Source: Roseobacter sp. (GTDB lineage: Bacteria > Pseudomonadota > Alphaproteobacteria > Rhodobacterales > Rhodobacteraceae). From it: a stretch of DNA of 64,000 nt. Location of the stretch: positions 881 through 64,880 of the forward strand of contig NZ_JAHEHZ010000001.1 in assembly GCF_024639605.1 (NCBI RefSeq), written 5' to 3'. Below the pieces are notes generated by a model that was given only the letters and a program-made list of their open reading frames with translations, was not told where the DNA came from and made no database searches. Both the position numbers and the translations under genes were made by a program. Below, piece after piece: positions 32,168 to 47,237 of the stretch (position 1 is its first letter; each line of letters begins with the position of its first letter).

Positions 32168-33037
32168 TTACACCTGCGCCTGTTTCATCCATGCCGCGAT
32201 CTGGCGCCCGATCTCAGGGCCTGAGTCTTCCTGGATAAAATGGCTGCCGGCGACCTGCACTTCGGTCTGGTTGCGCCATCTGCGGCAGAATTCCCGCGGC
32301 GCCCCTGTCAGTATGGCACCGGGCTCTGCATTCACGAACAGCTTTGGCAGCTCATTGCCGGCCATCCATTCCGCGTAAGCGGTGACCCGCGCCGTTACAT
32401 CCGCGGGCTCTCCGGCAACCGGAATCTGGCGCGGCCAGGTCAGCGTGGGCCAGCGGTCGTCGCGTGCGGCAAAGGGGCGGCGCCAGGTCGCCATCTCCTG
32501 CTTTGTCAGATCGCGCAGCACCGAGCCCGGCAGCACGCGCTCGATAAAGGTATTCCTGCCCAGGATCAGATCTTCACCCGCATCCGAGCGGAAGGCCTGA
32601 AAAAGCGGCGTGGCCGCGGGTGAGAACTCTTCCCAGCCGGCAAGCGGCCGCACAATCGCCTCCATATAGACGATGCCCGCCACCGCACCGGGGTTTTTGC
32701 AGGCCCAGTCGAACCCAAGCGCCGAGCCCCAGTCGTGGAGCACGAGGACGACATCCTTTGTCAGCCCCATGGACGCCATGAACCCCGCCAGATACCGGCT
32801 GTGCACATCAAAGGTATAGGTATCCGGCCCCGGATCAGGCAGCTTGTCACTGTTGCCCATCCCAATGAGATCGGGCGCGATAAGCCGCCCCTGTCCGGCA
32901 AGCTCCGGCATCACATCGCGCCAGAGATACGACGAGGTCGGGTTGCCGTGCAGGAACACGATCGGCCTGCCGCTGCCTGCCCCTGCATAAGCCATCTCTG
33001 CGCCGTGCACGGTAATGCGTTTATCCGCGATGCTCAC
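32168..33037 (-). CDS. Haloalkane dehalogenase (HLD-II, LinB/DhaA-like)
   Basis: FLHGNPTSSYLWR, LHDWGSALGF, YMEA, GSHFIQED catalytic pentad motifs. Confidence 0.92.
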   Translation of the reverse strand: MSIADKRITVHGAEMAYAGAGSGRPIVFLHGNPTSSYLWRDVMPELAGQGRLIAPDLIGMGNSDKLPDPGPDTYTFDVHSRYLAGFMASMGLTKDVVLVLHDWGSALGFDWACKNPGAVAGIVYMEAIVRPLAGWEEFSPAATPLFQAFRSDAGEDLILGRNTFIERVLPGSVLRDLTKQEMATWRRPFAARDDRWPTLTWPRQIPVAGEPADVTARVTAYAEWMAGNELPKLFVNAEPGAILTGAPREFCRRWRNQTEVQVAGSHFIQEDSGPEIGRQIAAWMKQAQV

Positions 33038-33055
33038 AGTGCTGCCCCCCGGTTA

Positions 33056-34084
33056 TCAGAGCCGGACCACGACCTTGCCAAAGCTGCGCCCTTCAAGCAC
33101 GTCATTGAGCGCTGCAGGCGCATTTTCCAGGCCCCCGACCACCTGTTCACGGTATTCGATCAGCCCCTGATCCAGCCAGTCTTTCATATCTTTGCGGAAG
33201 TCTTTGTAGGTCGACGCCGGAAAGCTGTCGAAGATGATGAAACCCTGTAGCTTCACCTTCATCTTCAGCACCGTGCTCATGATCATCGGCCCGTAGTCCG
33301 GCCCCTCTGGCAGGCCATCAAGATTGTACCACCCGGCCACACCACAGACGGGCACGCGCGCAAAGGCATTGAGAAGTGGCAGAACGCCGTAGAGCACTTT
33401 ACCGCCCACATTCTCAAAATAAACATCAATGCCATCCGGGCAGGCGGCGGCCAGCTGCTCTTTGAAATCGTCCGCGCGGTGATCAATGCAGGCGTCAAAG
33501 CCGAGGGTATCCACGACATGCGCGCATTTCTCCGGCCCGCCTGCCACGCCCACGACGCGACAGCCTTTGATCTTTGCGATCTGGCCCACCGTGGCGCCCA
33601 CCGGGCCCGAGGCCGCGGCGACCACAACCGTCTCGCCCTCTTTCGGCTCACCGATCAGCAACAGCCCCGCCCATGCGGTGTAGCCGGGCATACCGAGGAG
33701 CCCGAGCGACCATGAAGGGTTCTCCGGATCAGGTCCGAGGTTCATTACACCCTTCCCGTCCGAGAGCGCATAATCCTGCCAGCCGCTGCCGTTGAGGACC
33801 ATATCCCCGGGCGCAAAGCCGTCGATGTCCGAGGTGATCACCTCACCCACGACCTGCCCGGTCATCACCTCTCCGATCTTTACCGGTTCGGCATAGGATT
33901 TCGCATCGTTCATCCGCCCGCGCATGTAGGGATCGAGCGAGAGATACACCGTGCGCACCAGCATCTGTCCTGGTCCGGCCGCCGGCACGGCGCTGGTTTC
34001 GAGGCGCAGCGTGTTGTCATCGGGCATCCCGCGCGGGCGTTCGGCGAGGACAATACGACGGTTCGTTTCTGATGTCTGAGGCAT
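33056..34084 (-). CDS. NADP-dependent oxidoreductase (CurA/YncB, PTGR-like MDR)
   Basis: YLSLDPYMRGRM, LGMPGYTAWAGL, VAAASGPVGATVGQIAK, DVYFENVGG; AAGGAG RBS. Confidence 0.93.
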   Translation of the reverse strand: MPQTSETNRRIVLAERPRGMPDDNTLRLETSAVPAAGPGQMLVRTVYLSLDPYMRGRMNDAKSYAEPVKIGEVMTGQVVGEVITSDIDGFAPGDMVLNGSGWQDYALSDGKGVMNLGPDPENPSWSLGLLGMPGYTAWAGLLLIGEPKEGETVVVAAASGPVGATVGQIAKIKGCRVVGVAGGPEKCAHVVDTLGFDACIDHRADDFKEQLAAACPDGIDVYFENVGGKVLYGVLPLLNAFARVPVCGVAGWYNLDGLPEGPDYGPMIMSTVLKMKVKLQGFIIFDSFPASTYKDFRKDMKDWLDQGLIEYREQVVGGLENAPAALNDVLEGRSFGKVVVRL

Positions 34085-34296
34085 GGCGGTCTCCTTAAAG
34101 TGCATTCCGACCGTGCCTGTCCCACCCGCCGCGTGCAATGGCTTTCGGGCGCGCGTGCCCCTCTGCCACACTCTGCTCAAATTCGTACAAATCAGAGACT
34201 GATACCGGCCATCGTGGCTTCCCAAAAGGCTGCACCCCACATATAGTGCGGCCGATATAAAGCCGCGCAAAGCGGCAGGGGCAAAGGATCGGGCAC

Positions 34297-35106
34297 ATGG
34301 CGCACATTATCGTCGTCGGAAACGAAAAAGGCGGCGCGGGCAAATCGACCGTGTCAATGCATGTTGCGACCGCACTGGCACGCCTGGGTCATAAGGTCAG
34401 CGCGCTCGATCTTGATCTGCGGCAGCGCACCCTTGGGCGTTATGTCGAAAACCGGCAGGCGTTTCTGGCCAGCACCGGGCTGAACCTGCCTGGGCCACGG
34501 GTGCATGATCTGCCCGAAATCGCCGCCGAAACGCTGAAACCGGGCGAGAACATTTATGACCACCGGTTGTCGGCCGCTGTGGCAGAACTTGAACCGGACA
34601 ATGATTTTATACTCATCGACTGCCCCGGATCGCACACCCGGCTGAGCCAGGTGGCGCACAGCCTCGCGGATACGCTGATCACCCCGCTGAATGACAGCTT
34701 TGTTGATTTCGATCTGCTGGCGCGCACCGATCCCACCGGTGAGGAAATTCTCGGACCTTCCGTTTATTCAGAGATGGTCTGGAACGCGCGACAACTGCGC
34801 GCACAGGCGGGGCTCACACCCATCGACTGGATCGTGGTGCGCAACCGCATGGGCGCACAGCGTATGGTCAACAAGGAAAAGATGGAGCGCGCGATCAGCA
34901 ATCTCAGCCGTCGCATCGGATTCCGCATCGCACCGGGCTTTTCCGAGCGTGTCGTTTTCCGGGAGCTTTTCCCGCGCGGGCTGACGCTGCTCGACCTGAA
35001 AGATATCGGTGTCAAACAGCTCAATATCTCCAATGTCGCAGCCCGTCAGGAGCTGCGTGATCTGGTGAAATCCCTGAACCTGCCCGGCGTCACTGTCGAT
35101 TTCTGA
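34297..35106 (+). CDS. mipZ: Division-plane positioning ATPase MipZ
   Basis: GNEKGGAGKST, DLDLRQRT, DCPGSHT, TPLNDSFVDFDLL, RVVFRELFPRGLTLLD. Confidence 0.92.
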   Translation: MAHIIVVGNEKGGAGKSTVSMHVATALARLGHKVSALDLDLRQRTLGRYVENRQAFLASTGLNLPGPRVHDLPEIAAETLKPGENIYDHRLSAAVAELEPDNDFILIDCPGSHTRLSQVAHSLADTLITPLNDSFVDFDLLARTDPTGEEILGPSVYSEMVWNARQLRAQAGLTPIDWIVVRNRMGAQRMVNKEKMERAISNLSRRIGFRIAPGFSERVVFRELFPRGLTLLDLKDIGVKQLNISNVAARQELRDLVKSLNLPGVTVDF

Positions 35107-35962
35107 CCCGGCGGCGCCTGAGCGCCCAGAGGTTTGACACAAACAATGCGCCAACCACGATGCTGCCACCGGCCAGCGCCCAGGAGCCGGGGTTTTCGCC
35201 AACCACGGCCCAGACCAGCAGCGGCGCCAGCACGCTCTCCAGCAGCACCAGCAGGCCCACCTCGGCCGATGTGATGTAACGCGGCCCCAGCGCCAGCAAC
35301 GCCGAGCTACCCAGAATGAACCCGCCGTGCATCAGCACCAGGGGCGCCTGCTCAGGTGCCACTGAAAGCGGCGCGGCGAATGGCAGGATCACAAGGGCGG
35401 CCGCCAGATAACTCATTGCAGCCCCTGGCACCATCGAAACCCGTCGCACATGACGCGCCGCCGTGAGTGCAGCGGCAAAAAGCGCCGACACCGCGAGTGC
35501 CAGTGCATCTCCTGACCAGTGTGCGCCTTCGGTTTCGCCGGAGCCGCGCGCAATGATCGCAAGGCCCGTAGTCACCGCAAGCATCGTCAGGACCATGCGC
35601 GTGCTGACCGGCTCGCCCAGGAAGATCCGGCTGAAGAGGGCTGCGAAAACCGGCAGGGAGGCGATGATGAAGACCACATTGGCCACTGAGGTCAGGCTCA
35701 CGGCAAGCACAAAGAGCACGCCGCTGCTGCCCACGCCCAGCATATAGATCGCGCCGTATCGTCCGGCACTGAGCACAGCGCGAAAGGGTTTTGTCCCCTG
35801 CATCAGCAGGATCCCGCCACTGAGCATGCCGCCTGCGAGTGCCATCCGCCAGAAGGCGATCGTCAAAGGCTCCGCCGCGATCAGACGCACAAAAAGCGCG
35901 TCCGGCACGACCAGAAGCACGCCGAGGGTGGTGATGCAGAGACCTTTGAGGTGATCATTCAT
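35090..35962 (-). CDS. DMT/EamA-family transporter
   Basis: About 10 TM helices; start at MNDHL. Confidence 0.88.
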   Translation of the reverse strand: MNDHLKGLCITTLGVLLVVPDALFVRLIAAEPLTIAFWRMALAGGMLSGGILLMQGTKPFRAVLSAGRYGAIYMLGVGSSGVLFVLAVSLTSVANVVFIIASLPVFAALFSRIFLGEPVSTRMVLTMLAVTTGLAIIARGSGETEGAHWSGDALALAVSALFAAALTAARHVRRVSMVPGAAMSYLAAALVILPFAAPLSVAPEQAPLVLMHGGFILGSSALLALGPRYITSAEVGLLVLLESVLAPLLVWAVVGENPGSWALAGGSIVVGALFVSNLWALRRRRVRNRQ

Positions 35963-36094
35963 GGGTACGGGTCGTGACGACTTTGCGCGCACAAGTAAAG
36001 ACGCCGCCGCCCCTGAGCGGCAACGGGCTTGATCCCGCACAGGGTCACGCCATACTCTTTCTCACAGCAGAGCATCAGGGAGGTTGCAGCGCTT

Positions 36095-36310
36095 ATGAGC
36101 AAATACGGCCCGTCCCGAAGGGATCTGAGGTATCGCGCGGGCTTTGCCGTCACAGGGCTGAGCTTGACCGCAGGTGCGCTGGCCTATCGCGGCTGGCCCA
36201 CAGGCCCGGGCGGCTGGGAGGCCATAGGCATAGCGCTTGTGTTTTTCGGCGGGACACTGATCTGGGCGCTGCGCAAACTCATCCGGCAGGACTATCCCGA
36301 CGAAACCTGA
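36095..36310 (+). CDS. Small 2-TM hypothetical protein (71 aa)
   Basis: GGGAGG RBS; two hydrophobic helices. Confidence 0.65.
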   Translation: MSKYGPSRRDLRYRAGFAVTGLSLTAGALAYRGWPTGPGGWEAIGIALVFFGGTLIWALRKLIRQDYPDET

Positions 36311-36320
36311 CGCGCGCGGG

Positions 36321-36710
36321 TCAGGGGGCGGCAGCCCAGACTTCGACCTCGACCACAAACTCCGGGCGGGTAAAGCCCGAGACAATGAGCAGTGTCGATG
36401 TGGGCAACACGCTGACATCCTCCAGATACGCATCCCGCGCGACCATATACCCCGCCATATGCGCGCGGTCGGTGACATATGCCGTCACGTGGCAGACATC
36501 GCCCGCCCCCATATCCGCTTCCGCGAGAATTTGCGCGATATTTTCGAAACACATCCGCGCCTGGGCCTCTGACCCCTCGGGCACTGAGCCGTCGGCAGCG
36601 ATGGCAAGCTGACCTGCGGTGCGCACCCGGCGCAGGCCGGCGGGAAGCTCGACCCCGTGCGAATACCGGGCGACGGGGGCGGAAATACCGGGCGGGGCGA
36701 GCGCTTTCAT
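36321..36710 (-). CDS. RidA (YjgF/YER057c/UK114) family protein
   Basis: ARYSHGVE, TAGQL, PTSTLLIVSGFTRPEFVVEVEVWAA; AGGAG RBS. Confidence 0.9.
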   Translation of the reverse strand: MKALAPPGISAPVARYSHGVELPAGLRRVRTAGQLAIAADGSVPEGSEAQARMCFENIAQILAEADMGAGDVCHVTAYVTDRAHMAGYMVARDAYLEDVSVLPTSTLLIVSGFTRPEFVVEVEVWAAAP

Positions 36711-36841
36711 GGCGTGTCTCCTGTTCTCATGTCAGATCATTCTTGCGCAGGGCCACGAAATTTGAAACGGTAAGCTTACATCTCTGGCACAGATTAATTT
36801 CTCAAGGGCCGCAGTGAAGATTTCCTTTGAAGGAGGGAGAT

Positions 36842-38065
36842 ATGAACGCGCCCGTCGATGCCGTTCTGCATGACGTTCTTGTTCCACGCGCGCTGTTGCG
36901 CGATGAAGCGGGCTTTGGCGGCACGTTTGCCGGCGACTGCCTGCGCGGCGATCTGCTGATCCTGGAAGGCAGGGCCCGCGCGTTGCAGCCCGGCACTCCG
37001 GGAGAGACACCCCGCATTGTGCTGCCGGCCCTCACCGAGGCGCACTGTCATCTGGATAAATGCCACACCATCGCGCGGCTGGGCCCCGTGGGTGGCGATC
37101 TGATGGCGGCCATTGCGGCACAAAGAGAGGACAAAGCAAACTGGAGCGAAGAAGATCTGTCCCGCCGCGCACGCATCGGGCTGACCGAAGCGCAGGCCGC
37201 AGGCTGCACCGTGGTGCGCACACATGTGGACTGGGGCGATACAGCGGAGGCGCCGTTGAACTGGTCGGTTCTGACGGGTCTGGCGCGGGAGACTGCCGGT
37301 CTGACGCTGCAATGCGCGGCGCTGAACGGGATCGACCAGCACGCGGAGGATGATTTCTGTGACCGGGTGGCGCGCTGCGTGGCACGTGACAGTGGTGTTC
37401 TGGGCGCCTTTGTACTCGGCCACGAAAGGCTGCAGGACGGGCTGACTGCGATGATCAGGGCTGCTGACAAATACGGTCTCGCGCTGGATTTCCACGTCGA
37501 TGAGGGACTCAGAGACTACAACGGGCTGGAAACCATCTGTGACGCCCTGATCAGCGCACAGTTCGAAGGCCCGGTGCTCTGTGGACACGCCGTCAGCCTG
37601 ATAGACCGGCATGGTGATGACCTCGCCCGCATTCTCGACAAGCTTGTCCGGGCGCGGATATCGGTCTGCGCGCTGCCCACCACAAACCTCTATTTGCAGG
37701 ACCGGCGGGACGGCACGCCGGACCGGCGCGGGCTGACCCGGCTGCGCGAGCTTGAGAATGCGGGCGTGCCGGTTGTGGTGGGATCAGACAATGTCGCGGA
37801 TGCATTTTGCCCGGTGGGCCGGCATGACCCGATGGCTGCCCTGCACCTCGCCACACTCACCGGACACCTCGATCCGCCGATGGGCCGCTGGCTGCGGTCG
37901 GTGACGGTGGATGCCACCGCGTCCCTTGGCCTCGATCCGGTCTTCGTCGATGGCGCCGCAGCAGATGCCCTGCGCCTGAGTACCGCCCCTGATCTGGCTG
38001 GTCTAGTCGCCGGCCGCGCCCCTCTTTTTAAGCTGACAGATGTATTGCGGGAGACTGTTCAATGA
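36842..38065 (+). CDS. Metal-dependent amidohydrolase, cytosine/pterin deaminase-like
   Basis: EAHCHLDK, VRTHVD, DFHVDE, CGHA, GSDNVAD metal/catalytic motifs. Confidence 0.85.
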   Translation: MNAPVDAVLHDVLVPRALLRDEAGFGGTFAGDCLRGDLLILEGRARALQPGTPGETPRIVLPALTEAHCHLDKCHTIARLGPVGGDLMAAIAAQREDKANWSEEDLSRRARIGLTEAQAAGCTVVRTHVDWGDTAEAPLNWSVLTGLARETAGLTLQCAALNGIDQHAEDDFCDRVARCVARDSGVLGAFVLGHERLQDGLTAMIRAADKYGLALDFHVDEGLRDYNGLETICDALISAQFEGPVLCGHAVSLIDRHGDDLARILDKLVRARISVCALPTTNLYLQDRRDGTPDRRGLTRLRELENAGVPVVVGSDNVADAFCPVGRHDPMAALHLATLTGHLDPPMGRWLRSVTVDATASLGLDPVFVDGAAADALRLSTAPDLAGLVAGRAPLFKLTDVLRETVQ

Positions 38066-39468
38066 CCTCCATTTCCGGGAAAACGGATATTGACTGGGCC
38101 GCCTTTGCAGCCGAACTCACCCCCGTCGAGGTGATCAGCGAGACGGTACTGGTGAAAAAACGCAGCCGGGATTTTTTCTGGTACAGCCCGGTGCTGAATG
38201 CCGAGCTGAAAAAATGCTTTGGCGATCTGGTGGCCCGGCCAAAAACGCCCGGTGAAATGCGCCACTGTCTTGCCGTGGCCTGGAAATACAAAAGCCCCGT
38301 GGTGCTGCGCGGCGGCGGCACAGGCAACTACGGGCAGAGCGTGCCGATGGACGGCGGGCTGATCATCGAAACCACGGCCATGAACCGGATCCTTGAAATC
38401 GGTGACAGTTTTGTGCGGGTCGAGGCCGGGGCGCTCATGGCGGATATAAATGCCGCCCTGATCCCCGAAGGCCGGGAGATGGCGATGTTTCCCTCCACCC
38501 AGGATATCGCGACCGTGGGAGGCTTTGTGGCGGGCGGTTCGGCTGGCATCGGGTCGGTCGCCAATGGCGCGCTGCGCGACCCCGGAAACCTTATCGCTCT
38601 TAAGGCGCAGTCCGTCGAAGAAGTGCCGCAGGAGCACGTGTTCGAAGGCGAAGATGTGCTGCAGATCCACCATGCCTGGGGCCTCAACGGGGTGATCACC
38701 GAAGTAACTCTGCGCACGGTGCCCACGCGCGACTGGGTCGGGTGCCTTGCGACTTTCGGGACCTATGAGGCGGCCTATGCCGCAGGCTGTCAGCTTGCAA
38801 AATCCCCCGACATCGCGCGCAAGCTGGTTACGACGGTCGATGCGCGCATATGCTCCTATTTCCCCCGGCTCGAAGGTCATATCCGCCCGGAACATCACCT
38901 GCTGGTCTCGTTGCTGCCGTCCGAAGATATCGACAGGTTCCGGACCCTGATCGAGGCGGCCGGTGGTCATGTTGATCTGACGCTGACAGAGAGCGAACGC
39001 AAGGCTGCAAAACTGCCGCATGTCTTTGATTTCTCCTACAACCACACCACGCTGCAGGTGCTCAAAGCGGATCGCAGTGCCACCTATCAGCAGGTCGGTT
39101 GCCCCGTTCCGCCCGATCCGGCCGCCATTGCAGACCTGCGCCCGAAGCTCGGCGAAGACGTGTGGATGCACCATGAGTTTGCGCGTGTGGGCGGCGAGAT
39201 CGTGACCTTTGATTTGCCGATCATCTGGTACACGACGCCGGAACGACTGGCCGAAATCAATGCGACCTATGAGGAAAACGGCTTTCCCGTCTATGACGCG
39301 CATACCTGGCGGGTCGAAGGCGGTGGGCTGAAGAACGCAGATTACCGGCATCTCGCCGTCAAAAAACGCATGGACCCGGACGGGCTGCTCAATGCCGCGA
39401 AGTCCGCCGTCTGGGAGAGCGTTAAAGATCTTTCTCCGGAAGAAATTGCAGCAAAAGGAGCGCAGTGA
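38062..39468 (+). CDS. FAD-binding oxidoreductase (VAO/PCMH, FAD_binding_4)
   Basis: LRGGGTGNYGQ, ATVGGFVAGGSAGIG, HAWGLNGVIT, C-terminal DPDGLLN. Confidence 0.88.
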   Translation: MTSISGKTDIDWAAFAAELTPVEVISETVLVKKRSRDFFWYSPVLNAELKKCFGDLVARPKTPGEMRHCLAVAWKYKSPVVLRGGGTGNYGQSVPMDGGLIIETTAMNRILEIGDSFVRVEAGALMADINAALIPEGREMAMFPSTQDIATVGGFVAGGSAGIGSVANGALRDPGNLIALKAQSVEEVPQEHVFEGEDVLQIHHAWGLNGVITEVTLRTVPTRDWVGCLATFGTYEAAYAAGCQLAKSPDIARKLVTTVDARICSYFPRLEGHIRPEHHLLVSLLPSEDIDRFRTLIEAAGGHVDLTLTESERKAAKLPHVFDFSYNHTTLQVLKADRSATYQQVGCPVPPDPAAIADLRPKLGEDVWMHHEFARVGGEIVTFDLPIIWYTTPERLAEINATYEENGFPVYDAHTWRVEGGGLKNADYRHLAVKKRMDPDGLLNAAKSAVWESVKDLSPEEIAAKGAQ

Positions 39469-40379
39469 TGCAACTCAGAACCACACCGCTCGCAGAACGC
39501 TTCGGCGTGATCGTCGAGGATTTCGACCTCAGTTCGACAGACGCGGCGGGTTACGCTGCGATCCGGGCAGCATTCGAAGAGCATTCGGTGCTGCTCTTTC
39601 GCGGCCAGAGTATCGATGATGACGCGCACCTGAGGCTTGCGCGCATGTTCGGGCCCGTGGAAGACCGCCTCGCGGATGAGCGCAAAAAGGGCGAAGCTTA
39701 CAAGGTGCCTGAGGTGTCCAACATTCAGGACGACGGCAGCGTAACCTCCGAAAGCGATCTGCACACGCTGAACCTGAAGTCCAATATGCTCTGGCACTGC
39801 GACAGCACCTTTCTGCCGGTGCCGGCGCTGACCAATATCCTGATCGGACGCGTCGTAACGGAAACCGGGGGCGAAACCCAGCTAGCCTCTGCCCGCGCAG
39901 GTTGGGCGGATATGCCCGAAAAACTGCGGGCAAAGATTCGCGACAAGGGGCTCTGGCACCGATATGCGCACTCGCGTGCAAAAATTTCGCCTGAACTCGC
40001 AAAATTACCGATGTTTCACAAATGGCCCGATCAACTCTGGCGGGCAGTGTGGACCAACCCCGTGAACGGGCGGGAGGCGCTTTACATAGCCAGCCACGCA
40101 TTCAGAGTGGAGGGAATGGATCAAGGTCCGGGAGCGACACTGATAGATGAGTTAGCGTCATTTGTGACCCGTCCGGCCTATGTTTACAGTCATAAATGGC
40201 GGGTCGGCGATGTTCTGATCTGGGACCAGCGTGCCGTGCTTCACCGTGCCACACCCTGGGATTACGCCCTGCCGCGCAGGCTCTCAAGCCTTTGTGTCTC
40301 CGCCGGTCCCCAAGATGGGCTTGACGCGATGCGCCTCACTGTTGAAGATCACCCCGTCCCCCGATCAGGGGTGTCTTAA
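39465..40379 (+). CDS. TauD/TfdA-family Fe(II)/2-oxoglutarate dioxygenase
   Basis: LWHCDSTF (HxD), [18 protein letters not shown] distal His. Confidence 0.9.
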
Positions 40380-40459
40380 AAGCAGATAAACTGCATCACC
40401 AGACCGGGAAATATCCGGCATGCGTACGGTCAGAACCGTACACAACAGAGAGGAAGAAA

Positions 40460-42118
40460 ATGACATTTTTAACCCGCACCGGCAAACCGCTGCCGCAGTC
40501 CATCCTGGACGGCGCCGCGAAGTCCGGCACAGATGCTGTCAGCCGCCGCGAATTCCTGGCACTGGCCAGTGCATTCGGCGCCACAGCCGCGACTGCATAT
40601 TCGATGCTGGGCATGGCACGCCCCGCGCAGGCCGCAGGCCACAAAATGGGTGGCACCGTCCGTATCCAGCAGGAAGTCCGCGCTCTGAAAGATCCGCGCA
40701 CGTATGACTGGAGCCAGATTGCCAACTTCAGCCGCGGCTGGCTGGAGTATCTCGTGCACTATGAGAACGACGGTACCTTCACGCCCAAGCTGCTTGAAAG
40801 CTGGGAAATCAATGACGATGCGACGGTCTATACGCTTAACGTCCGTCAGGGCGTCAAGTGGAACGACGGCAGCGATTTCACCGCAGAAGATGTTGCACGC
40901 AACATCACCGGCTGGTGTGACAAGAGCCTGGAAGGCAACTCGATGGCCGGTCGTTTCGCGACGCTGATCGACCCGGAAACCGAAAAAGCACTGGACGGGG
41001 CGATCGAAGTCGTCGACAGCCACACCGTGCGCCTGAACCTGCCCGCAGCCGACATCTCGCTCATCCCCGGGATGGCAGATTATCCGGCGGCGATCGTACC
41101 GGCGTCCTATACGGCTGACACAGCGCTGTCCAACCCGGTCGGCACAGGCCCTTATCTGCCTGAGATGCTGGAAGTTGGCGTCAAAGCCGTTCTCGTGCGC
41201 AACGAAGACCACACGTGGTGGAACGAAGGCAACGGCGCTTATATGGACCGCGTCGAGTTCATCGACTATGGCACCGACCCTTCTGCTTTTGTGGCGGGTG
41301 CTGAAGCCGAAGAGATCGACATGACATATTCGATCGAAGGTGACTTCATCGACATCTTCGACACGCTCGACGGCTGGCAGCAGAACTCGGTCGTCACCGG
41401 TTCCACAATCGTAATCCGGCCCAACCAGCTGGCCGAAGTTGACGGCATGAAGCCCTATGAGGACAAACGCGTCCGGCAGGCGCTTGCCATGGCAGTGGAC
41501 AACGCGGTTCTGCTTGAGCTGGGCTATGCCGGTCGCGGCGAAGTGGCTCATAACCACCACGTCGGTCCGATGCACCCTGAATATGCCGATATACCGGCAC
41601 CCAAGTTCGATCCGGCAGCCGCCAAGGCGCTGATGGACGAAGCGGGCTTGGGTGATTTCGAGCATGAGCTCTTTTCTATTGATGACGCATGGCGCAAGGA
41701 CACCACCGACGCGGTGGCAGCCCAGCTGCGCGACGCGGGCATTAAGGTCAAGCGGACGATCCTGCCCGGCTCCACGTTCTGGAACGACTGGACGAAATAT
41801 TCCTTCTCCTCCACGAACTGGAACCACCGCCCGCTGGGCGTTCAGATCTGGGCTCTGGCCTATCGCTCCGGCGAAGCCTGGAACGAGTTTGGCTGGTCGA
41901 ATGAAGAGTTCGACGGGATCCTCACTCAGGCACTGGCGACACCGGACGTGGAAAAACGCCGCGAGCTGATGAAGCAGGGCGAGATGATTATTCAGGAAGA
42001 GGGCGTAACAATCCAGCCTTACTGGCGGTCGCTTTATAACCACACCAAAGAGGGTCTGGTCGGTGGCGATCATCACATCTCGTTTGAGATCCGTCCCGAG
42101 CAGATCGCCTGGACGTGA
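40460..42118 (+). CDS. ABC transporter substrate-binding protein, family 5, Tat signal
   Basis: SRREFLALA twin-arginine motif, [25 protein letters not shown]-like, PVGTGPY. Confidence 0.9.
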
Positions 42119-42135
42119 TCTGACGCCATACTGCG

Positions 42136-42165
42136 AAGGGCCGTGCATTGCGCGGCCCTTTTTTT
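42136..42165 (+). terminator. Rho-independent terminator
   Basis: AAGGGCCGTGC..GCGCGGCCCTT followed by a T-tract. Confidence 0.85.
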
Positions 42166-42200
42166 GTCACGCAGACGCTTTGCCATGAAAGGACCCGGAA

Positions 42201-42689
42201 ATGGACGTCACAATCTTACTCGCTCAACTCGTTGCGACCGGGGCCATTGCGGCCTGGCTTTCGACCGGGCTGCGCGACAACCTTCTGCATCCGGCGCTGA
42301 ATGAGACCTATACAGCGGAAGTGTTCAGCATGGCCCGCATGCAAAGCGAATACCCCGAAGCCTTTGACATGGTCGCGCATCGCGCCATTACAAAACGCAG
42401 AACACAAAAGATTGCCTTCCGCGCGGTGGTCGCGGTCGAAGCGCTGGCCTGTATCCTGCTATGGGTCGGCGTTGTGGCGTTGCTCATGGCGATTGCGGGG
42501 ACGGCCGGGGCTGAAACGGCGCGCGTTCTGGCCCTGCTCGGGGCCACGGCGTTTACCGCCGTCTGGGCCGGGTTTCTTGTGGTCGGCAACTACTTTTACT
42601 ACTGGTTCTGCCACGAGGGTGCGCAGAATACGCACTATCAGATGACGCTCTGGGGCCTCGGCACCATGATCCTGATCAGTCTGCCGTGA
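42201..42689 (+). CDS. Membrane protein, DUF2165-like
   Basis: 4 TM helices; DN...N...V..M and F.VVG.YF..W pattern. Confidence 0.65.
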   Translation: MDVTILLAQLVATGAIAAWLSTGLRDNLLHPALNETYTAEVFSMARMQSEYPEAFDMVAHRAITKRRTQKIAFRAVVAVEALACILLWVGVVALLMAIAGTAGAETARVLALLGATAFTAVWAGFLVVGNYFYYWFCHEGAQNTHYQMTLWGLGTMILISLP

Positions 42690-43308
42690 ACCGGCCACCG
42701 CCCGCCGCCACCGCCGCGATCAGCGGTGCCGGCACCTGCCCGGTCTGCACGGAAATCTGAGCGCAAAGTGCCCGGGCACCGGTTTCATCTGCAAGCTCAA
42801 AAAGGCGCGGCATGCCCGCAGAACTGCAGGCATCATCAATGTCTGTGATCCGGCATCTCTCCTGCGTCACGATCCGGGCGGCTGCATTTGTCAGCCCCGC
42901 AATCAGGTAAGACGCCAGCGCCCCCGCAGCCGGATCGACGCGCGTAATGCCGGCAAAACGCGCTTCTTCGCGCAACAGGTCTTCGACGAGCGGGTCAATG
43001 ACCAGACCCCCGCCGCCCGGGTAGCGGTACCAGCCAACTGCGACGCTGCGCCCCAGGCGCCCCTCAGCAACCATACGCACAAGCACCGGATTGGTCTGCT
43101 GCACCGGCGTGACCGCATTGCGGCTGGCGCGGGCGAGTTCCGGTTCCAGACCGTCGTTATCCCAGGCCTCGCAGACGCCGGTGGCAAAGCCCGCGTCCAG
43201 CATTGCTTCATCCAGTTCCCAGGGGTTGGCAAAGGTCAGCAGAAGGTGCTGAGCAAGCTCGCGCAGGGCGGCGGTCAGCGCATCTGCCAGATCAGGTGCC
43301 GGATTCAT
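42676..43308 (-). CDS. 3-hydroxyacyl-CoA dehydrogenase C-terminal-domain-only protein
   Basis: MVAEGRLGRSVAVGWYRY (cf. GxLGxKxGxGFY) and a second ID.A...G.P repeat; no GxGxxG NAD-binding domain. Confidence 0.75.
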   Translation of the reverse strand: MNPAPDLADALTAALRELAQHLLLTFANPWELDEAMLDAGFATGVCEAWDNDGLEPELARASRNAVTPVQQTNPVLVRMVAEGRLGRSVAVGWYRYPGGGGLVIDPLVEDLLREEARFAGITRVDPAAGALASYLIAGLTNAAARIVTQERCRITDIDDACSSAGMPRLFELADETGARALCAQISVQTGQVPAPLIAAVAAGGGRFTAD

Positions 43309-44195
43309 GCACCGTGCACTTCCAGAAACCGTTTAGAGGCAATAACTGCCAGCAGATCGTTCAGCGAGGACGACACCGTCCGGTTAGACGTGTTCACCTG
43401 CGCGCCGGCTTTTTCATAGGCCGGCGTGCGTGCTTCCAGCAGCCCGCGCAGCTGTTGCATGGCTGCCGGATTGCCCTCCATGGGGCGCAGATCACCCTGT
43501 TCGCGGACCCGTTGCATATGTTCTGCCGGCGATGTTCTGATCCAGATTGTATGAAACCGCTCGATCAGCCGGGCATAGGTCTGCTCTCCCGCGACGATGC
43601 CTCCTGCGACGGCAAGGATCATGCGGTCATGGCGTTCAATGACGCGGGCCAGTGCCTCGGCCTCAAGGGAGCGATATCCGTCCTCACCATAGAGGGCCAT
43701 CACCTCGGACAGCGGCATGCCCGTCTGCGTCTCGATCTCTGAGTTCAGCTCGACAAACGGCAGGCCCAGGGTCTCGCCGGCAAGTTTACCAAGGGTGGAT
43801 TTTCCCGCGCCTCTGAGCCCTGTCAGGCAGATACGGTTTGCCCGCAGGGCTGCAGGGTTTTGAACGGCCAGAACGCGGCGCACCTCGTCCTGTACCGAGG
43901 CAGGGGCCTGGCGGTAGAGAGTCACCACCCGTTGCAGGTCGCTGTCCCAGGCCGCAGTTTCCGACATCAGCGCTTCGATACGCAGATCAAGTGCTGTGGC
44001 GATGCGTTGCAGCAAAGCGATCGAGATATTGCCTTCGCCGGCCTCAAGCTGGGCAAGATACCGCGGCGAAACACCGGACAGCTCAGACAGTTCGCGACGC
44101 GGCATGCCTTTTGACTTGCGCGCTTCGCGCACACGGGCCGCAACGCGGGCGATCAGCAAAGCAGCCGTATCAGCTACAGCGGGACTGTCTTTCAT
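43305..44195 (-). CDS. boxR: BzdR/BoxR-type regulator (XRE HTH plus shikimate-kinase-like domain)
   Basis: LSELSGVSPRYLAQLEAGEGNISI HTH; ICLTGLRGAGKSTLG P-loop. Confidence 0.92.
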   Translation of the reverse strand: MKDSPAVADTAALLIARVAARVREARKSKGMPRRELSELSGVSPRYLAQLEAGEGNISIALLQRIATALDLRIEALMSETAAWDSDLQRVVTLYRQAPASVQDEVRRVLAVQNPAALRANRICLTGLRGAGKSTLGKLAGETLGLPFVELNSEIETQTGMPLSEVMALYGEDGYRSLEAEALARVIERHDRMILAVAGGIVAGEQTYARLIERFHTIWIRTSPAEHMQRVREQGDLRPMEGNPAAMQQLRGLLEARTPAYEKAGAQVNTSNRTVSSSLNDLLAVIASKRFLEVHGA

Positions 44196-44302
44196 CGCAA
44201 CTCCGGCGCTGAGAGGTAGAATAACGCATATTTAAGCTTCAGGGTCGGGCTTACAACGGGCGCGCCTTCACATTGCGCAATATGTCGCATATTTTTTCAA
44301 TC

Positions 44303-45499
44303 TCAGTAGGTCTCGACATGGTACTGGCCGGCCTCGCGCAGGCTGTCGCGCAGGTTCGGCCATGACAGGCCCAGACCCGCCGCAATATCGCTGAGTGCAT
44401 CATCCACCCCGACTTCCATTGCGCGCAACCCGCAGACGTAGATGTGCAGTTTGTCGCGCGTCAGCAGGTCCGCAATGTGACCCGACTGTTCGCGCAGCTT
44501 ATCCTGCACATACTGCTTGGGGCTGCCGTCTTCGCGGCTGAAGGCGAACTCTTTGCGCAGGAAGCTGTCAGGTACTTTCTTGAGCGGTCCGAAGTAAGGC
44601 AGGTCGCGCGGGCTGCGCGCACCGAAAACCAGCGTCATGCTGTCGCTTGCCGAAGGCGTCTCGCGCTGGCGTCGCATGGTGAATCCGCGGAAAGGTGCCG
44701 ACCCGGTGCCGGTACAGATCATCAGCAGATGCGCCTCCGGATCAGAGGGCATCAGAAAGGTCGACCCGAAAGGCCCGGTCAGTTGCACCTCGTCGCCCCT
44801 GCCCAGGTCGCAGACGTAGCCGGAGCAGACGCCGCCCTCTTCGCGTTTCACCGTCAGGGAGATATTGTTGAACCCCGGTCGCTCCCCGTCGCGCGGGCTT
44901 GAGACCGAATAGAGCCTTGGCAGGTGCGGTCTGCCCTCCGCATCCGTACCAGGCGGAATAACCCCCACACTCTGGCCTTCCAGCACCGGAAAGGGCAGCC
45001 CTGCCAGATCCAGAATGATGTGGCGAACGTCTCCCTCGCTGCCGGCATCTGTCAGCCGGTAGTTGCCCTGCACAACAGCCCGCGCAGGTTTACCGGTGTT
45101 ATAGAGGTTAATGGTGGGCTTTGTTGCTGAAGCGGGCGCGCGCGATTTGCCGCCTGCCCCTTTGTGCGCATCCGCGAGCAGAGCGGCAATGGCCTCGTCA
45201 TGTGCTTCGTTGCCGTCGCTGTCCGGATGCGCGTCAAGGCTGATGTCTTCCTGATCGGGGAGCTCTTCAAAGCCGTATTGCTCATCAAGGGTATAAGGTG
45301 TGTCGACGACGCGCCATTCATCAATTGATCCGGTCGGGCAGACCGGGATGCAGTCCATACAGAAGTTGCATTTATCGGGATCGACAACGACATTGTTGTC
45401 ATCATGCTCGATCGCGCCGATCGGGCAGGTCATCTCGCAGGTGTAACAGCGGATGCAGATTTCAGGGTCGATAAGGTGTTGCTTTACGGGTTGGTTCAT
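44303..45499 (-). CDS. boxA: Benzoyl-CoA 2,3-epoxidase reductase subunit
   Basis: KQHLIDPEICIRCYTCEMTCP and CNFCMDCIPVCP ferredoxin motifs; PRLYSVSSPRDG, MICTGTGSAPF, YVCG, VETY FNR motifs. Confidence 0.95.
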   Translation of the reverse strand: MNQPVKQHLIDPEICIRCYTCEMTCPIGAIEHDDNNVVVDPDKCNFCMDCIPVCPTGSIDEWRVVDTPYTLDEQYGFEELPDQEDISLDAHPDSDGNEAHDEAIAALLADAHKGAGGKSRAPASATKPTINLYNTGKPARAVVQGNYRLTDAGSEGDVRHIILDLAGLPFPVLEGQSVGVIPPGTDAEGRPHLPRLYSVSSPRDGERPGFNNISLTVKREEGGVCSGYVCDLGRGDEVQLTGPFGSTFLMPSDPEAHLLMICTGTGSAPFRGFTMRRQRETPSASDSMTLVFGARSPRDLPYFGPLKKVPDSFLRKEFAFSREDGSPKQYVQDKLREQSGHIADLLTRDKLHIYVCGLRAMEVGVDDALSDIAAGLGLSWPNLRDSLREAGQYHVETY

Positions 45500-45633
45500 C
45501 CGGCTCCGACGGACCGGTGCAACACAGTATCGGGAACGAATATCATATCGAGAAGCGCGGAACACATGCCTTTGCAGTCTTTGCAACCGATGCAAATCGC
45601 GCTGGATTTTGTGCCTGAATTCTGTGTCTGCAT
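45496..45633 (-). CDS. 45-aa Cys-motif small protein MQTQNSGTKSSAICIGCKDCKGMCSALLDMIFVPDTVLHRSVGAG
   Basis: Hand-translated; AAGGAG RBS at 45643-45648; CxxCxxCxxxC; TGA overlaps the boxA ATG (ATGA). Confidence 0.8.
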   Translation of the reverse strand: MQTQNSGTKSSAICIGCKDCKGMCSALLDMIFVPDTVLHRSVGAG

Positions 45634-45727
45634 GGGTCCGGTCTCCTTCTTAAGGGTCAAGGTCACGGGGGTGAGGCGTGACGCAGGCCAGTATCTTAGA
45701 GGCCCGCGCCGGGTTCTTTGATCTGGA

Positions 45728-47179
45728 TCAAGCCATGTGGAGTTTCACATATTCGAAATCACCGGGCTTGTTGTCGATGCCCACCTTGGGTGCTGCAATC
45801 CAGGAAGCGTATTTTCCCGGCTCGAAACAGGGCACCATCAGAGACTGGATAAAATCTCCGTCGGCCTTTGTCGGCAACCATTCAGCGCGGCGTTTCTCCC
45901 ATTCCTCTGACGGGATGATATTGCCATCAGGATCAACGCAAACGCTTGAAAAGACGCCGATCTGGCGGTGGAAGCCTTCGTGTGGCAGTTTCAGTTCAAA
46001 TTCCACACCTGCGCGGGCAATCGCCTTGTTCCAGCGGCCGACACCACCTGCGGCATCGCGCACATAATCATCGCGCAGCCGCATGTTGATCGCCGTCAGC
46101 GCCGGCACGTCTTCGGTCAGGATCTTACCGTCCCTGATAGAGGTTACCGCATAGGTGTCATTCTGCAGTTTGTGATCATCATCGATCCTGAGTTCCATAT
46201 ACCGGCCCTTGATCCCTGCGTTGAAGGCATTGGCGGCATTGGTCGAGACCTCCTGCCCAAAAAGATCGAGGCTCAGCGTGTAATGCAGGTTGAGTTTTTT
46301 CTGGATCGTCGGCAGGTCAATCACACCCAGATCGCGGATTTTGTTGATGTCATAAGGATCGGTGATGCCGTTCGCATTCATCGCCTCCAGGGTCGCCTGA
46401 ATGGTGCGCCCGACACCGGTCTCGCCGACGAACATGTGGTGCGCCTCTTCGGTCAGCATGAAACGGCAGGTGCGGCTCAGCGGGTCAAAGCCGGACTGCG
46501 CGAGGCTCTCAAGCTGCATCTTGCCATCACGGTCTGTGAAATAGGTGAACATAAAAAACGACAGCCAGTCAGGGGTTTCCTCGTTGAAGGCGCCCAGCAT
46601 GCGCGGCGCTTCTTCGGAGCCCGACGAGCGGACCAGCAGATCGTCGGCCTCTTCACGCCCGTCACGACCAAAGTATTTCTGCAACAGATAGACCATCGCC
46701 CAGAGATGGCGGCCCTCTTCGACGTTCACCTGAAAAAGGTTGCGCATGTCATAAAGCGAGGGCGCGGTGAGACCGAGGAACCGTTGCTGTTCAACAGAGC
46801 CCGGTTCGGTGTCGCCCTGAATGACGATAAGGCGTTTGAGCATATTGCGGTACTCGCCCGGCACCTCCTGCCAGGCAGCTTCGCCGACGTGTTCCCCCAT
46901 CGGAATTTTGCGGTCCTCCACCGCCGGCGCCAGCAGCACGCCCCAGCGATATTCGGGCATTTTCACATAGTCGAACTTGGCCCAGCCTTTGGGGTCAACC
47001 GAGACCGCCGTGCGCAGATAGACCATGCTGTCCTGAAAATTCTGCGGGATCAGATCGTTCCACCAGTTAATGTACCCCGGATGCCATTTCTCGAGCGCTT
47101 TCAGAACCTTGCGATCTGAGCTCAGCCCCACGTTGTTGGGGATCTGACTGTCATAGCTTACGTTGATCAGGTCTGCCAT
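45728..47179 (-). CDS. boxB: Benzoyl-CoA 2,3-epoxidase oxygenase subunit (di-iron)
   Basis: IPNNVGL, QGDTEPGSVEQQ, VNVEEGRHLW, EEAHH di-iron motifs; GGAG RBS. Confidence 0.96.
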   Translation of the reverse strand: MADLINVSYDSQIPNNVGLSSDRKVLKALEKWHPGYINWWNDLIPQNFQDSMVYLRTAVSVDPKGWAKFDYVKMPEYRWGVLLAPAVEDRKIPMGEHVGEAAWQEVPGEYRNMLKRLIVIQGDTEPGSVEQQRFLGLTAPSLYDMRNLFQVNVEEGRHLWAMVYLLQKYFGRDGREEADDLLVRSSGSEEAPRMLGAFNEETPDWLSFFMFTYFTDRDGKMQLESLAQSGFDPLSRTCRFMLTEEAHHMFVGETGVGRTIQATLEAMNANGITDPYDINKIRDLGVIDLPTIQKKLNLHYTLSLDLFGQEVSTNAANAFNAGIKGRYMELRIDDDHKLQNDTYAVTSIRDGKILTEDVPALTAINMRLRDDYVRDAAGGVGRWNKAIARAGVEFELKLPHEGFHRQIGVFSSVCVDPDGNIIPSEEWEKRRAEWLPTKADGDFIQSLMVPCFEPGKYASWIAAPKVGIDNKPGDFEYVKLHMA

Positions 47180-47237
47180 TGTCTCTTCTCCATCTTTTGT
47201 CGCAGGGCGCGCGCCCGTCGTGTCCTGTGCTGCGGGC

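Follow-up and report, generated by a model that had tools for sequence, protein, structure and literature searches.

A conserved deaminase and flavoenzyme operon in a Roseobacter genome, a candidate system for the use of pterin-like compounds

Among the described systems closest to the operon reported here are bacterial enzymes and pathways that act on pterins. Cluster I of Cupriavidus sp. LA-1, a cluster of the lumazine pathway, starts with a pterin deaminase and continues with a molybdenum lumazine dehydrogenase, an amidase-signature isomerase and a prFMN (UbiD-type) decarboxylase; in the lumazine clusters of Rhizobiales and Rhodobacterales, genes for cytosine deaminase-like (CDA-like) proteins replace the pterin deaminase (PMC12391406). 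One CDA-like protein, Arad_3529, has pterin deaminase activity, as cited in the same paper. The pterin deaminase (PDA) of Variovorax sp. F1 shares 37% identity with Arad_3529 and is able to deaminate folate and pteroate; next to its gene is a conserved 'endoribonuclease' gene (PMC9513972), which may be of the L-PSP/Rid type. We analyzed a stretch of 64,000 nucleotides from a Roseobacter sp. genome (RefSeq assembly GCF_024639605.1, contig NZ_JAHEHZ010000001.1, positions 881 to 64,880; hereafter the window), which holds an operon with a CDA-like deaminase gene followed directly by the gene of a FAD-binding enzyme. The kinds of genes involved are partly known, and the conserved operon itself is biochemically undescribed. 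We read it as a reduced, Roseobacter-specific version of a widespread module, most likely for the use of an amino-substituted N-heterocycle, with roughly even odds for a pterin or a folate fragment as the substrate.

Gene content and active sites

The window (contig C79 in our numbering) has a G+C content of ~61% and comes from an assembly of 260 contigs that is 90% complete. Roseobacter ponti is the nearest named relative, with 95% identity in the FAD enzyme and 86% in the deaminase. A first-pass annotation, made from the letters alone, had described four open reading frames and proposed a co-transcribed catabolic unit around a CDA-like amidohydrolase. All four were recovered at the same coordinates, every one with a clear Pfam match, and the proposed unit is supported. 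It runs on beyond 40379 to 42689, taking in a binding-protein gene, a terminator and a DUF2165 gene. The features of the locus are as follows.

35090-36040, minus strand: EamA-family (drug/metabolite transporter) membrane protein (Pfam EamA, 66 bits)
36321-36710, minus strand: divergent Rid (YjgF/L-PSP) family protein (Ribonuc_L-PSP, 61.6 bits)
36742-36812, plus strand: conserved upstream control region
36821-36838, plus strand: predicted hairpin over the Shine-Dalgarno sequence of the deaminase (minimum-free-energy fold)
36842-38065, plus strand: CDA-like metal amidohydrolase, putative pterin-type deaminase (Amidohydro_3, 64.9 bits; Amidohydro_1)
38062-39468, plus strand: VAO/PCMH-type FAD enzyme of the 6V42 kind (FAD_binding_4, PF01565, 83.2 bits)
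39465-40379, plus strand: TfdA/TauD-type Fe(II)/2-oxoglutarate dioxygenase (Pfam TauD, PF02668, 185.4 bits)
40460-42118, plus strand: family-5 solute-binding protein, Tat-exported (SBP_bac_5, 219 bits)
42135-42161, plus strand: intrinsic terminator (12-pair GC-rich stem, then a T run)
42201-42689, plus strand: DUF2165 small integral membrane protein (PF09933, 112 bits)

The gene overlaps reported in the first-pass annotation were borne out. The deaminase and FAD enzyme genes share ATGA at 38062-38065 (the junction reads caATGAcc), and the FAD enzyme and dioxygenase genes share GTGA in the junction caGTGATGca at 39465-39470. The dioxygenase starts either at GTG 39465, with a 4-nt overlap, or at ATG 39468, with a 1-nt overlap, and AAAGGAG lies upstream. 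Because their stop and start junctions overlap, the FAD enzyme and the dioxygenase are translationally coupled. For the deaminase, the likely start is ATG 36842, behind GAAGGAGGGAG, rather than TTG 36827. The gap between the dioxygenase and binding-protein genes is 80 bases.

The metal ligands of the deaminase are intact, as had been claimed: H68, H70, H218, E221, H249 and D316 are invariant among 20 homologues and align with H61, H63, H214, E217, H246 and D313 of E. coli CodA. With its HxH, His, His and Asp ligands and its catalytic Glu, the protein belongs to the CDA-like subgroup of the amidohydrolase superfamily. CodA (PDB 1K6W) matches it at E 1.7e-21 and has the same fold and catalytic residues, but the two proteins are 22% identical, and CodA Gln156, Asp314 and Trp319 are replaced by Gly, Asn and Phe. 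We read these positions from an alignment of CodA with deaminases from clusters of the window's kind (type 1) and from a second kind of cluster (type 2, described below), in which every protein retains the metal ligands along with the catalytic Glu, His and Asp. Both types replace Gln156 (by Gly, Ser, Pro or Asp), Asp314 (by Asn), Trp319 (by Phe) and Thr66 (by Lys), and both have the motifs HxHLDK and SDNVxDxF and a Tyr or Phe at CodA position 281. This common signature suggests that the two types act on the same substrate class, and that this class is not cytosine.

We also scored the window deaminase against NCBIfam models. It reached 261 bits on NF005759 (cut-off 403), 104 on NF005748 (cut-off 438) and 87 on NF006685 (cut-off 483). 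All curated cytosine deaminase models are thus far under cut-off, and with Gln156 and Asp314 absent the protein is no cytosine deaminase proper of the CodA type. On the active-site residues and model scores together we reject the reading as a cytosine or creatinine deaminase; the enzyme is cytosine-deaminase-like, as annotated, yet not a cytosine deaminase. The deaminase of the Rhizobium type-2 cluster is a full member of NF005759 with 704 bits, and that of the type-1 operon in Ruegeria sp. TM1040 scores 269. Because the window and TM1040 scores stand so far from 704 bits, we place these two enzymes in a sister group. The names of homologues returned by protein searches are all generic, for instance 'cytosine deaminase' or 'cytosine/creatinine deaminase'. 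Arad_3529 and the Variovorax PDA, which act on pterins and folate, are CDA-like deaminases of the amidohydrolase superfamily like the window enzyme, whose putative assignment to them comes from gene context. The contexts may indeed be alike, with the 'endoribonuclease' gene beside the Variovorax PDA and the divergent Rid gene beside the window deaminase.

The atrazine plasmid pADP-1 carries an unnamed amidohydrolase 35.5% identical to the window deaminase (locus L084, NC_004956.1, 92490-93821). It follows immediately on a BMP-family ABC transporter, and an IS1182-like element lies at its flank. We considered whether this match is AtzC and rejected that identity; it is a different, unnamed amidohydrolase beside a BMP-type ABC system.

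For the FAD enzyme, one PDB entry stood out when the database was searched by sequence: 6v42_A, which matches over the full length (residues 13-453) with E 2e-96. An AlphaFold2 model of the enzyme (pLDDT 83) aligns with 6V42 over 443 residues (Z 40.3, rmsd 2.5), and the next structural matches are D-lactate and D-2-hydroxyacid dehydrogenases at Z 27.5 and below. The title of 6V42 is 'Crystal structure of the flavin oxygenase with cofactor bound involved in folate catabolism'. By its FAD_binding_4 domain, its full-length similarity and its position right behind a CDA-like deaminase, the window protein is a 6V42-type VAO/PCMH flavoenzyme; it is a full-length homologue of 6V42/6V43, yet the identity is only ~36-40%. 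A short peptide taken from the 6V42 alignment has a Rhizobium protein as its nearest match (79% over 39 residues), so the 6V42 enzyme probably comes from a type-2 cluster. A folate-derived substrate for enzymes of this type would follow from the depositors' title.

The dioxygenase had also been described as having intact ligands, and H111-x-D113, H260 and R271/R272 are indeed present and nearly all conserved in 37 orthologues. The HxD...H iron triad and the 2-oxoglutarate-binding Arg place the protein in the TauD/TfdA family. Its nearest solved relatives are TfdA-type 2,4-D dioxygenases (5bke, E 1.2e-41; 5j92, E 1e-37). TfdA, the 2,4-dichlorophenoxyacetate/2-oxoglutarate dioxygenase (PDB 5BKE), has the same Fe(II) and 2-oxoglutarate ligands but another gene context, and any likeness of reaction would be one of analogy.

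The gene annotated earlier as a divergent RidA is indeed a Rid-family gene, but that its product quenches imines as RidA does cannot be taken for granted. The protein does not have the catalytic Arg105 (PTS is aligned with PTR of TdcF) and scores 35 bits on TIGR00004, under the cut-off of 106; it is therefore not a RidA proper, that is, an enamine/imine deaminase. Type-2 clusters also carry a Rid gene.

Conservation, reduction and a second cluster type

We fetched 80 loci from contigs of one genome per species by aligning homologues of the deaminase and determined their architectures by tblastn, using as queries the window proteins and the extra genes found in the loci. Gene counts cover the 64 loci with sufficient flank. 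The same gene order recurs in the 80 loci, and this check of the deaminase neighbourhood shows that the arrangement is not a matter of chance. The deaminase is present in all 64 counted loci, the binding protein in 61, the Rid gene in 47, the FAD enzyme in 45, DUF2165 in 44, the dioxygenase in 30, the creatininase-family gene in 26 and the amidotransferase-like gene in 23. In 45 of these type-1 loci the FAD enzyme gene lies directly 3' of the deaminase gene, as it does in the type-2 clusters of Rhizobium, Alloyangia and Roseateles.

The full form of the operon has eight genes: the Rid gene in the opposite orientation, then amidotransferase-like, creatininase-family, deaminase, FAD enzyme, dioxygenase, binding-protein and DUF2165 genes. 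It is found on the megaplasmid of Ruegeria sp. TM1040, where the annotation names are generic. The window form consists of the divergent Rid gene followed by the deaminase, FAD enzyme, dioxygenase, binding-protein and DUF2165 genes, and the order of these last five is kept in Rhodobacterales, in a Thalassobaculaceae genome and in Gammaproteobacteria. The Thalassobaculaceae and gammaproteobacterial versions are more distant ones, and the Thalassobaculaceae locus (L066) holds all parts together with EamA, two permease genes and an ATPase gene on one strand. The type-1 FAD enzyme occurs in 8 of 121 genera when one genome per genus of the family is sampled, so the distribution of the cluster is patchy.

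In one gammaproteobacterial relative (L070, 4869-8491), the cluster adjoins genes for an MttB-family methyltransferase and for a protein with Oxidored_FMN and Pyr_redox_2 domains.

Traces of lost genes persist in several loci. Where the amidotransferase-like gene is missing, its opening codons, MDKR..., are often left behind the upstream element (L003, L009, L046, L053 and L077). We considered these codons as a leader peptide and rejected that reading; they are the remnant N-terminus of the lost gene. Six loci without the dioxygenase gene (L003, L033, L034, L043, L049 and L061) retain a C-terminal fragment of it, ~50 codons long, between the FAD enzyme and binding-protein genes. Because these remnants persist in loci without the genes, we regard the window form as a reduced derivative of the longer operon, and the pattern shows that the type-1 operon eroded repeatedly and independently. 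Two earlier claims have to be adjusted in this light. The dioxygenase had been taken as a core, 'fused-in' step; it is instead accessory, being present in 30 loci with remnants in six others, and it is almost never seen without the FAD enzyme. The lack of a creatininase-like gene had been noted correctly, but the ancestral operon was longer and the gene was lost from it in this lineage. A search of the window's own genome for orthologues of the creatininase-family and amidotransferase-like proteins gave a creatininase paralogue of 43% identity and weak amidotransferase matches. The amidotransferase-like protein of the full operon has a weak Peptidase_C26 (gamma-glutamyl hydrolase) signal and is under the NCBIfam cut-offs for amidotransferases.

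DUF2165 tracks the FAD enzyme: both are present in 42 of the 64 loci, the FAD enzyme without DUF2165 in 3 and DUF2165 without the FAD enzyme in 2. The DUF2165 gene lies directly behind the FAD enzyme gene in the Thalassobaculaceae locus and behind it after a gap in the gammaproteobacterial one. Type 2 has a flavin-reductase-like gene where type 1 has DUF2165, which hints that DUF2165 could be a redox or anchoring partner of the FAD enzyme. EamA is a possible but weakly linked member, with Rid as its neighbor in only 6 of 64 loci; it heads the all-in-one operon of the Thalassobaculaceae genome.

Type-2 clusters came from a plasmid collection, in which homologues of the deaminase and the FAD enzyme are again adjacent and in the same order. 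Three annotated examples come from Rhizobium ruizarguesonis, Roseateles sp. and Alloyangia pacifica. They share a creatininase-family gene, an ABC system with an NMT1-like binding protein of ~336 residues, the deaminase (PRK07583), the FAD-binding oxidoreductase, a LysR or TetR regulator and the Rid gene. Type 2 also carries the flavin-reductase-like gene, and Rhizobium and Alloyangia have an NAD(P)H-dependent oxidoreductase as well. The Rhizobium cluster adjoins a PaoABC-type molybdenum hydroxylase with its maturation genes. The core of the two types is thus alike: a CDA-like deaminase followed by a 6V42 homologue, a Rid gene and, in the full form of type 1, a creatininase-family gene. They differ in that type 2 has the NMT1-like ABC system, the flavin-reductase-like gene and the LysR or TetR regulator, whereas the window type lacks a local regulator and combines a family-5 binding protein with DUF2165 and an optional TfdA-like dioxygenase.

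Transport and control of expression

The first-pass annotation counted the lack of a permease and of a regulator among the unusual features of the cluster. That reading stopped at 40379, and the binding-protein gene is the next one. Its product has the twin-arginine signal SRREFL, belongs to family 5 (peptide/opine/nickel type) and is the sole close family member in its own genome, the next match being 29% identical. The locus holds no permease genes, and the family-5 importer is therefore not encoded together there. The membrane partners are encoded on another contig (C218, 31303-36783; L114, 7304-12784), where two permease genes and the gene of a fused ATPase stand behind an AraC-type regulator gene, with no binding-protein gene among them. 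A permease there is 74% identical to the permease behind the orthologous binding-protein gene of the Thalassobaculaceae operon. The syntenic locus of four other genera has the order MiaA-AraC-SBP5-Perm1-Perm2-ATPase. Because that locus holds the orthologous binding-protein gene in other genera and the window's genome has one close copy, we conclude that the transporter is split: in this lineage the enzyme genes have the binding-protein gene beside them, and the regulator and the membrane partners are still at the ancestral locus. The type-1 cluster itself does lack a regulator gene, as annotated, but an AraC-type gene is found at this unlinked locus.

Of the 121 genera, 100 have the binding-protein family and 88 the permease. 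In some genomes a locus-linked copy of the binding protein occurs alongside a cluster-linked one, the two being ~60-68% identical to each other, and the cluster copy may be a specialised paralogue that shares the permeases. Since the family is so widespread, inferring the substrate from the type of transporter is weakened.

The conserved region upstream of the deaminase consists of CTTGCGCA (36742-36749), AAATTTGAAAC (36758-36768), the dyad ATCTCTGGCACAGAT (36780-36794) and the box AGGGCCGC (36805-36812). Its core element, ~30 nt at 36780-36812, is ATCTCTGGCACAGAT, a variable stretch of 2-22 nt (often with a second ATCTC) and AGGGCC(G/A)C. The pattern GGCACRGA-N(2-22)-AGGGCC occurs once in 53 of the 80 loci, on the plus strand and ahead of the first gene, regardless of which gene comes first. 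The window's own genome has 7 matches to the two-box pattern against 6 in the reversed control, and only the window copy stands at this operon. The motif is absent from the AraC/permease locus, whose promoter has its own direct repeats, ATGTCG(C/T)TTTT. Expression of the operon probably depends on this conserved element rather than on a local regulator gene.

The element may be either an operator or an RNA leader. Its first box is an exact ATC-N9-GAT dyad, replaced by CTC-N9-GAG in four loci. ATC-N9-GAT is a classical LysR-type site. We considered a regulon built on the dyad: with up to two mismatches it had 12 matches in the window's own genome against 1 in the reversed control, the best extra match, the one inspected, lies in a coding frame, and we took the extra matches as chance. 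Covariation is weak overall. Its only clear instance is the symmetric change between the two dyads, 5 double changes in the ATCT/AGAT helix, a count reached by 1 of 500 shuffles; an operator and an RNA helix would account for it equally well. For the GGC/GCC and inner helices, covariation was not beyond that of shuffles. Searching Rfam with the leader, including the THF and other riboswitches, gave no match at E values up to 5 except at chance level.

RNA is favored by two kinds of hairpin. In Shimia-type loci the box GGGCCAYG serves as the 5' arm of a strong terminator (z about -2.1 to -2.4); apart from these terminators, the z-scores of the leader folds are not significant. In the fold of 36776-36850 in the window, the hairpin at 36821-36838 sequesters the Shine-Dalgarno sequence of the deaminase (UUUCCUUUG / AAGGAGGGA), and the leaders of L034, L043 and L010 have analogous Shine-Dalgarno hairpins with different sequences.

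Substrate class and proposed pathway

The first-pass annotation had proposed a pterin-type substrate, and this is the best-supported substrate class: the only close solved relative of the FAD enzyme carries a title that names folate catabolism. CDA-like pterin deaminases are documented: the Variovorax enzyme (PMC9513972) and Arad_3529, as cited in PMC12391406. On balance, a pterin or folate fragment has an even chance of being the true substrate. In a literature search, we found no paper on the breakdown of pterins or folate fragments by a flavoenzyme route of this kind; the title of the PDB entry is the only trace.

A pathway consistent with these features might run as follows. The Tat-exported binding protein would catch the compound in the periplasm and pass it to the unlinked pair of permeases with their fused ATPase. 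The deaminase would then hydrolyse the exocyclic amino group, turning a pterin into a compound of the lumazine type and releasing ammonia, and the 6V42-type flavoenzyme, possibly with DUF2165 as a partner, would oxidise or oxygenate the deaminated ring or its side chain. TfdA-type enzymes hydroxylate the methylene beside an ether oxygen and so cleave aryl-O-CH2-R. By analogy, the dioxygenase could in an optional step hydroxylate a carbon beside a heteroatom; attack on the methylene carbon C9 that adjoins N10 in folate or pteroate would for example yield a pterin aldehyde and p-aminobenzoyl-glutamate. If the analogy holds, such an activity would fit the accessory role of this enzyme, widening the substrate range from free to conjugated pterins. 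We assign no step to the Rid-family protein that lacks the RidA arginine. The ancestral operon started with a class-I amidotransferase-like gene and a creatininase-family hydrolase gene, both lost here. The order of deamination, side-chain oxidation and hydroxylation, as first proposed, is conjectural.

Several observations weigh against a pterin or folate substrate. The assignment for the type-1 proteins comes from homology, and the window proteins are ~30-37% (deaminase) and ~36-40% (FAD enzyme) identical to those of type 2 and 6V42, so that specificity may differ. Our literature search gave no paper behind 6V42, for which the functional label is the PDB title. The lumazine pathway (PMC12391406) uses quite different enzymes: none of the three downstream enzymes of LA-1 cluster I is encoded in the window cluster, which has a VAO-type flavoenzyme in place of the molybdenum, isomerase and decarboxylase steps. 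The Rid protein is without Arg105. In addition, the transporter is not specific to the pathway, its binding protein being found in 100 of 121 genera against 8 for the type-1 FAD enzyme.

The same logic could apply to another amino-N-heterocycle or cyclic amidine, such as a purine-like base (of the isoguanine or 8-oxoguanine type), an aminopyrimidine, a triazine-like compound, a cytokinin-like base or a creatinine-like ring. We regard this as possible, though clearly less likely than a pterin or folate fragment. The deaminase is equally far from all characterised enzymes, as the CodA match and the NF005759 score below cut-off indicate; its pADP-1 homologue stands beside an ABC system of the BMP (nucleoside) type, creatininase-family hydrolases open cyclic amides generally, and type-2 clusters use NMT1-like binding proteins, a family whose members often bind pyrimidines. 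Yet the sole functional label in the family is folate catabolism, the residues that recognise cytosine are absent, and the sole CDA-like relative with a measured activity that the cited papers name is a pterin deaminase. A peptide-like, gamma-glutamyl or opine-like substrate is unlikely. The deaminase would then hydrolyse a non-aromatic amide or amidine as a general amidohydrolase, with the TfdA-like enzyme dealkylating an N- or O-carboxyalkyl group. The nearest solved relatives of the binding protein, which bind peptides, agropinic acid (AgaA), nickel complexes and agrocinopines, are in line with such a substrate, and so are the amidotransferase-like protein with its weak Peptidase_C26 signal at the head of the full operon, the cleavage of carboxymethyl ethers by TfdA-type enzymes and the frequent occurrence of the transporter in the family without the enzymes. 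However, the deaminase retains the full catalytic set of the nucleobase type (HxH, H, E, H, D), the pair of deaminase and 6V42-type enzyme is also found with a quite different, non-peptide type of transporter, and folate is itself a glutamyl conjugate, so that the features in line with a peptide-like substrate fit the pterin or folate reading too.

Least probable by far, and largely refuted, is an ordinary salvage gene for a cytosine or creatinine deaminase that neighbors the oxidoreductases by chance. Several sources give homologues such names, but the replacement of CodA Gln156 and Asp314, the scores of the cytosine deaminase models far under cut-off, the overlapping stop and start codons and the recurrence of the gene order in 80 loci, across classes, all speak against it.

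Returning to pterins and folate fragments, the upstream element and the dioxygenase can be read jointly. The element would be a new small riboswitch-like leader that senses the pteridine substrate of the pathway and is read out differently among lineages, by terminators in Shimia-type genomes and by Shine-Dalgarno hairpins elsewhere, and the TfdA-like enzyme would cleave the C9-N10 bond of folate or pteroate. We hold this combination to be improbable; if true, the leader and the cleavage would amount to an undescribed marine route for recycling fragments of vitamin B9.

Fan et al. (2013) are said to have described a pterin deaminase as the start of an 'undescribed pterin degradation pathway'. 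Algal metabolites are consumed on a large scale by roseobacters, and with an operon that strips pteridines of their nitrogen, marine models would gain a vitamin-derived nitrogen source. The copy in the window illustrates how such an operon is rebuilt, with its front genes lost, its dioxygenase decaying in sister lineages and its binding-protein gene apart from the permeases. Ruegeria sp. TM1040, with the full eight-gene form, is a cultured strain that has this operon.

Other genes flank the cluster in the window. Between the EamA and Rid genes, and convergent with the latter, is an open reading frame of 70 codons (36098-36310, plus strand) with hydrophobic stretches (MSKYGPSRRDLRYRAGFAVTGLSL...). 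Upstream, the stretch 32168-35106 (32168-34270 on the minus strand and 34297-35106 on the plus strand) encodes a haloalkane dehalogenase (NF002938, 392 bits), a CurA-like NADPH curcumin/dihydrocurcumin reductase family protein (518 bits) and the division-site ATPase MipZ. Beyond DUF2165, a benzoyl-CoA oxidation (box) cluster occupies 42676-48896 on the opposite, minus strand. It encodes a 3HCDH C-terminal-domain protein, a regulator with XRE-HTH and shikimate-kinase-like parts (BoxR-like), a ferredoxin/NAD-binding reductase (BoxA-like), a PaaA/PaaC-like oxygenase (BoxB-like) and an enoyl-CoA hydratase family protein (BoxC-like). The box cluster looks functionally separate from the pterin-type cluster; the two are syntenic in many roseobacters, and the box regulator is kept in 34 of the 64 loci.

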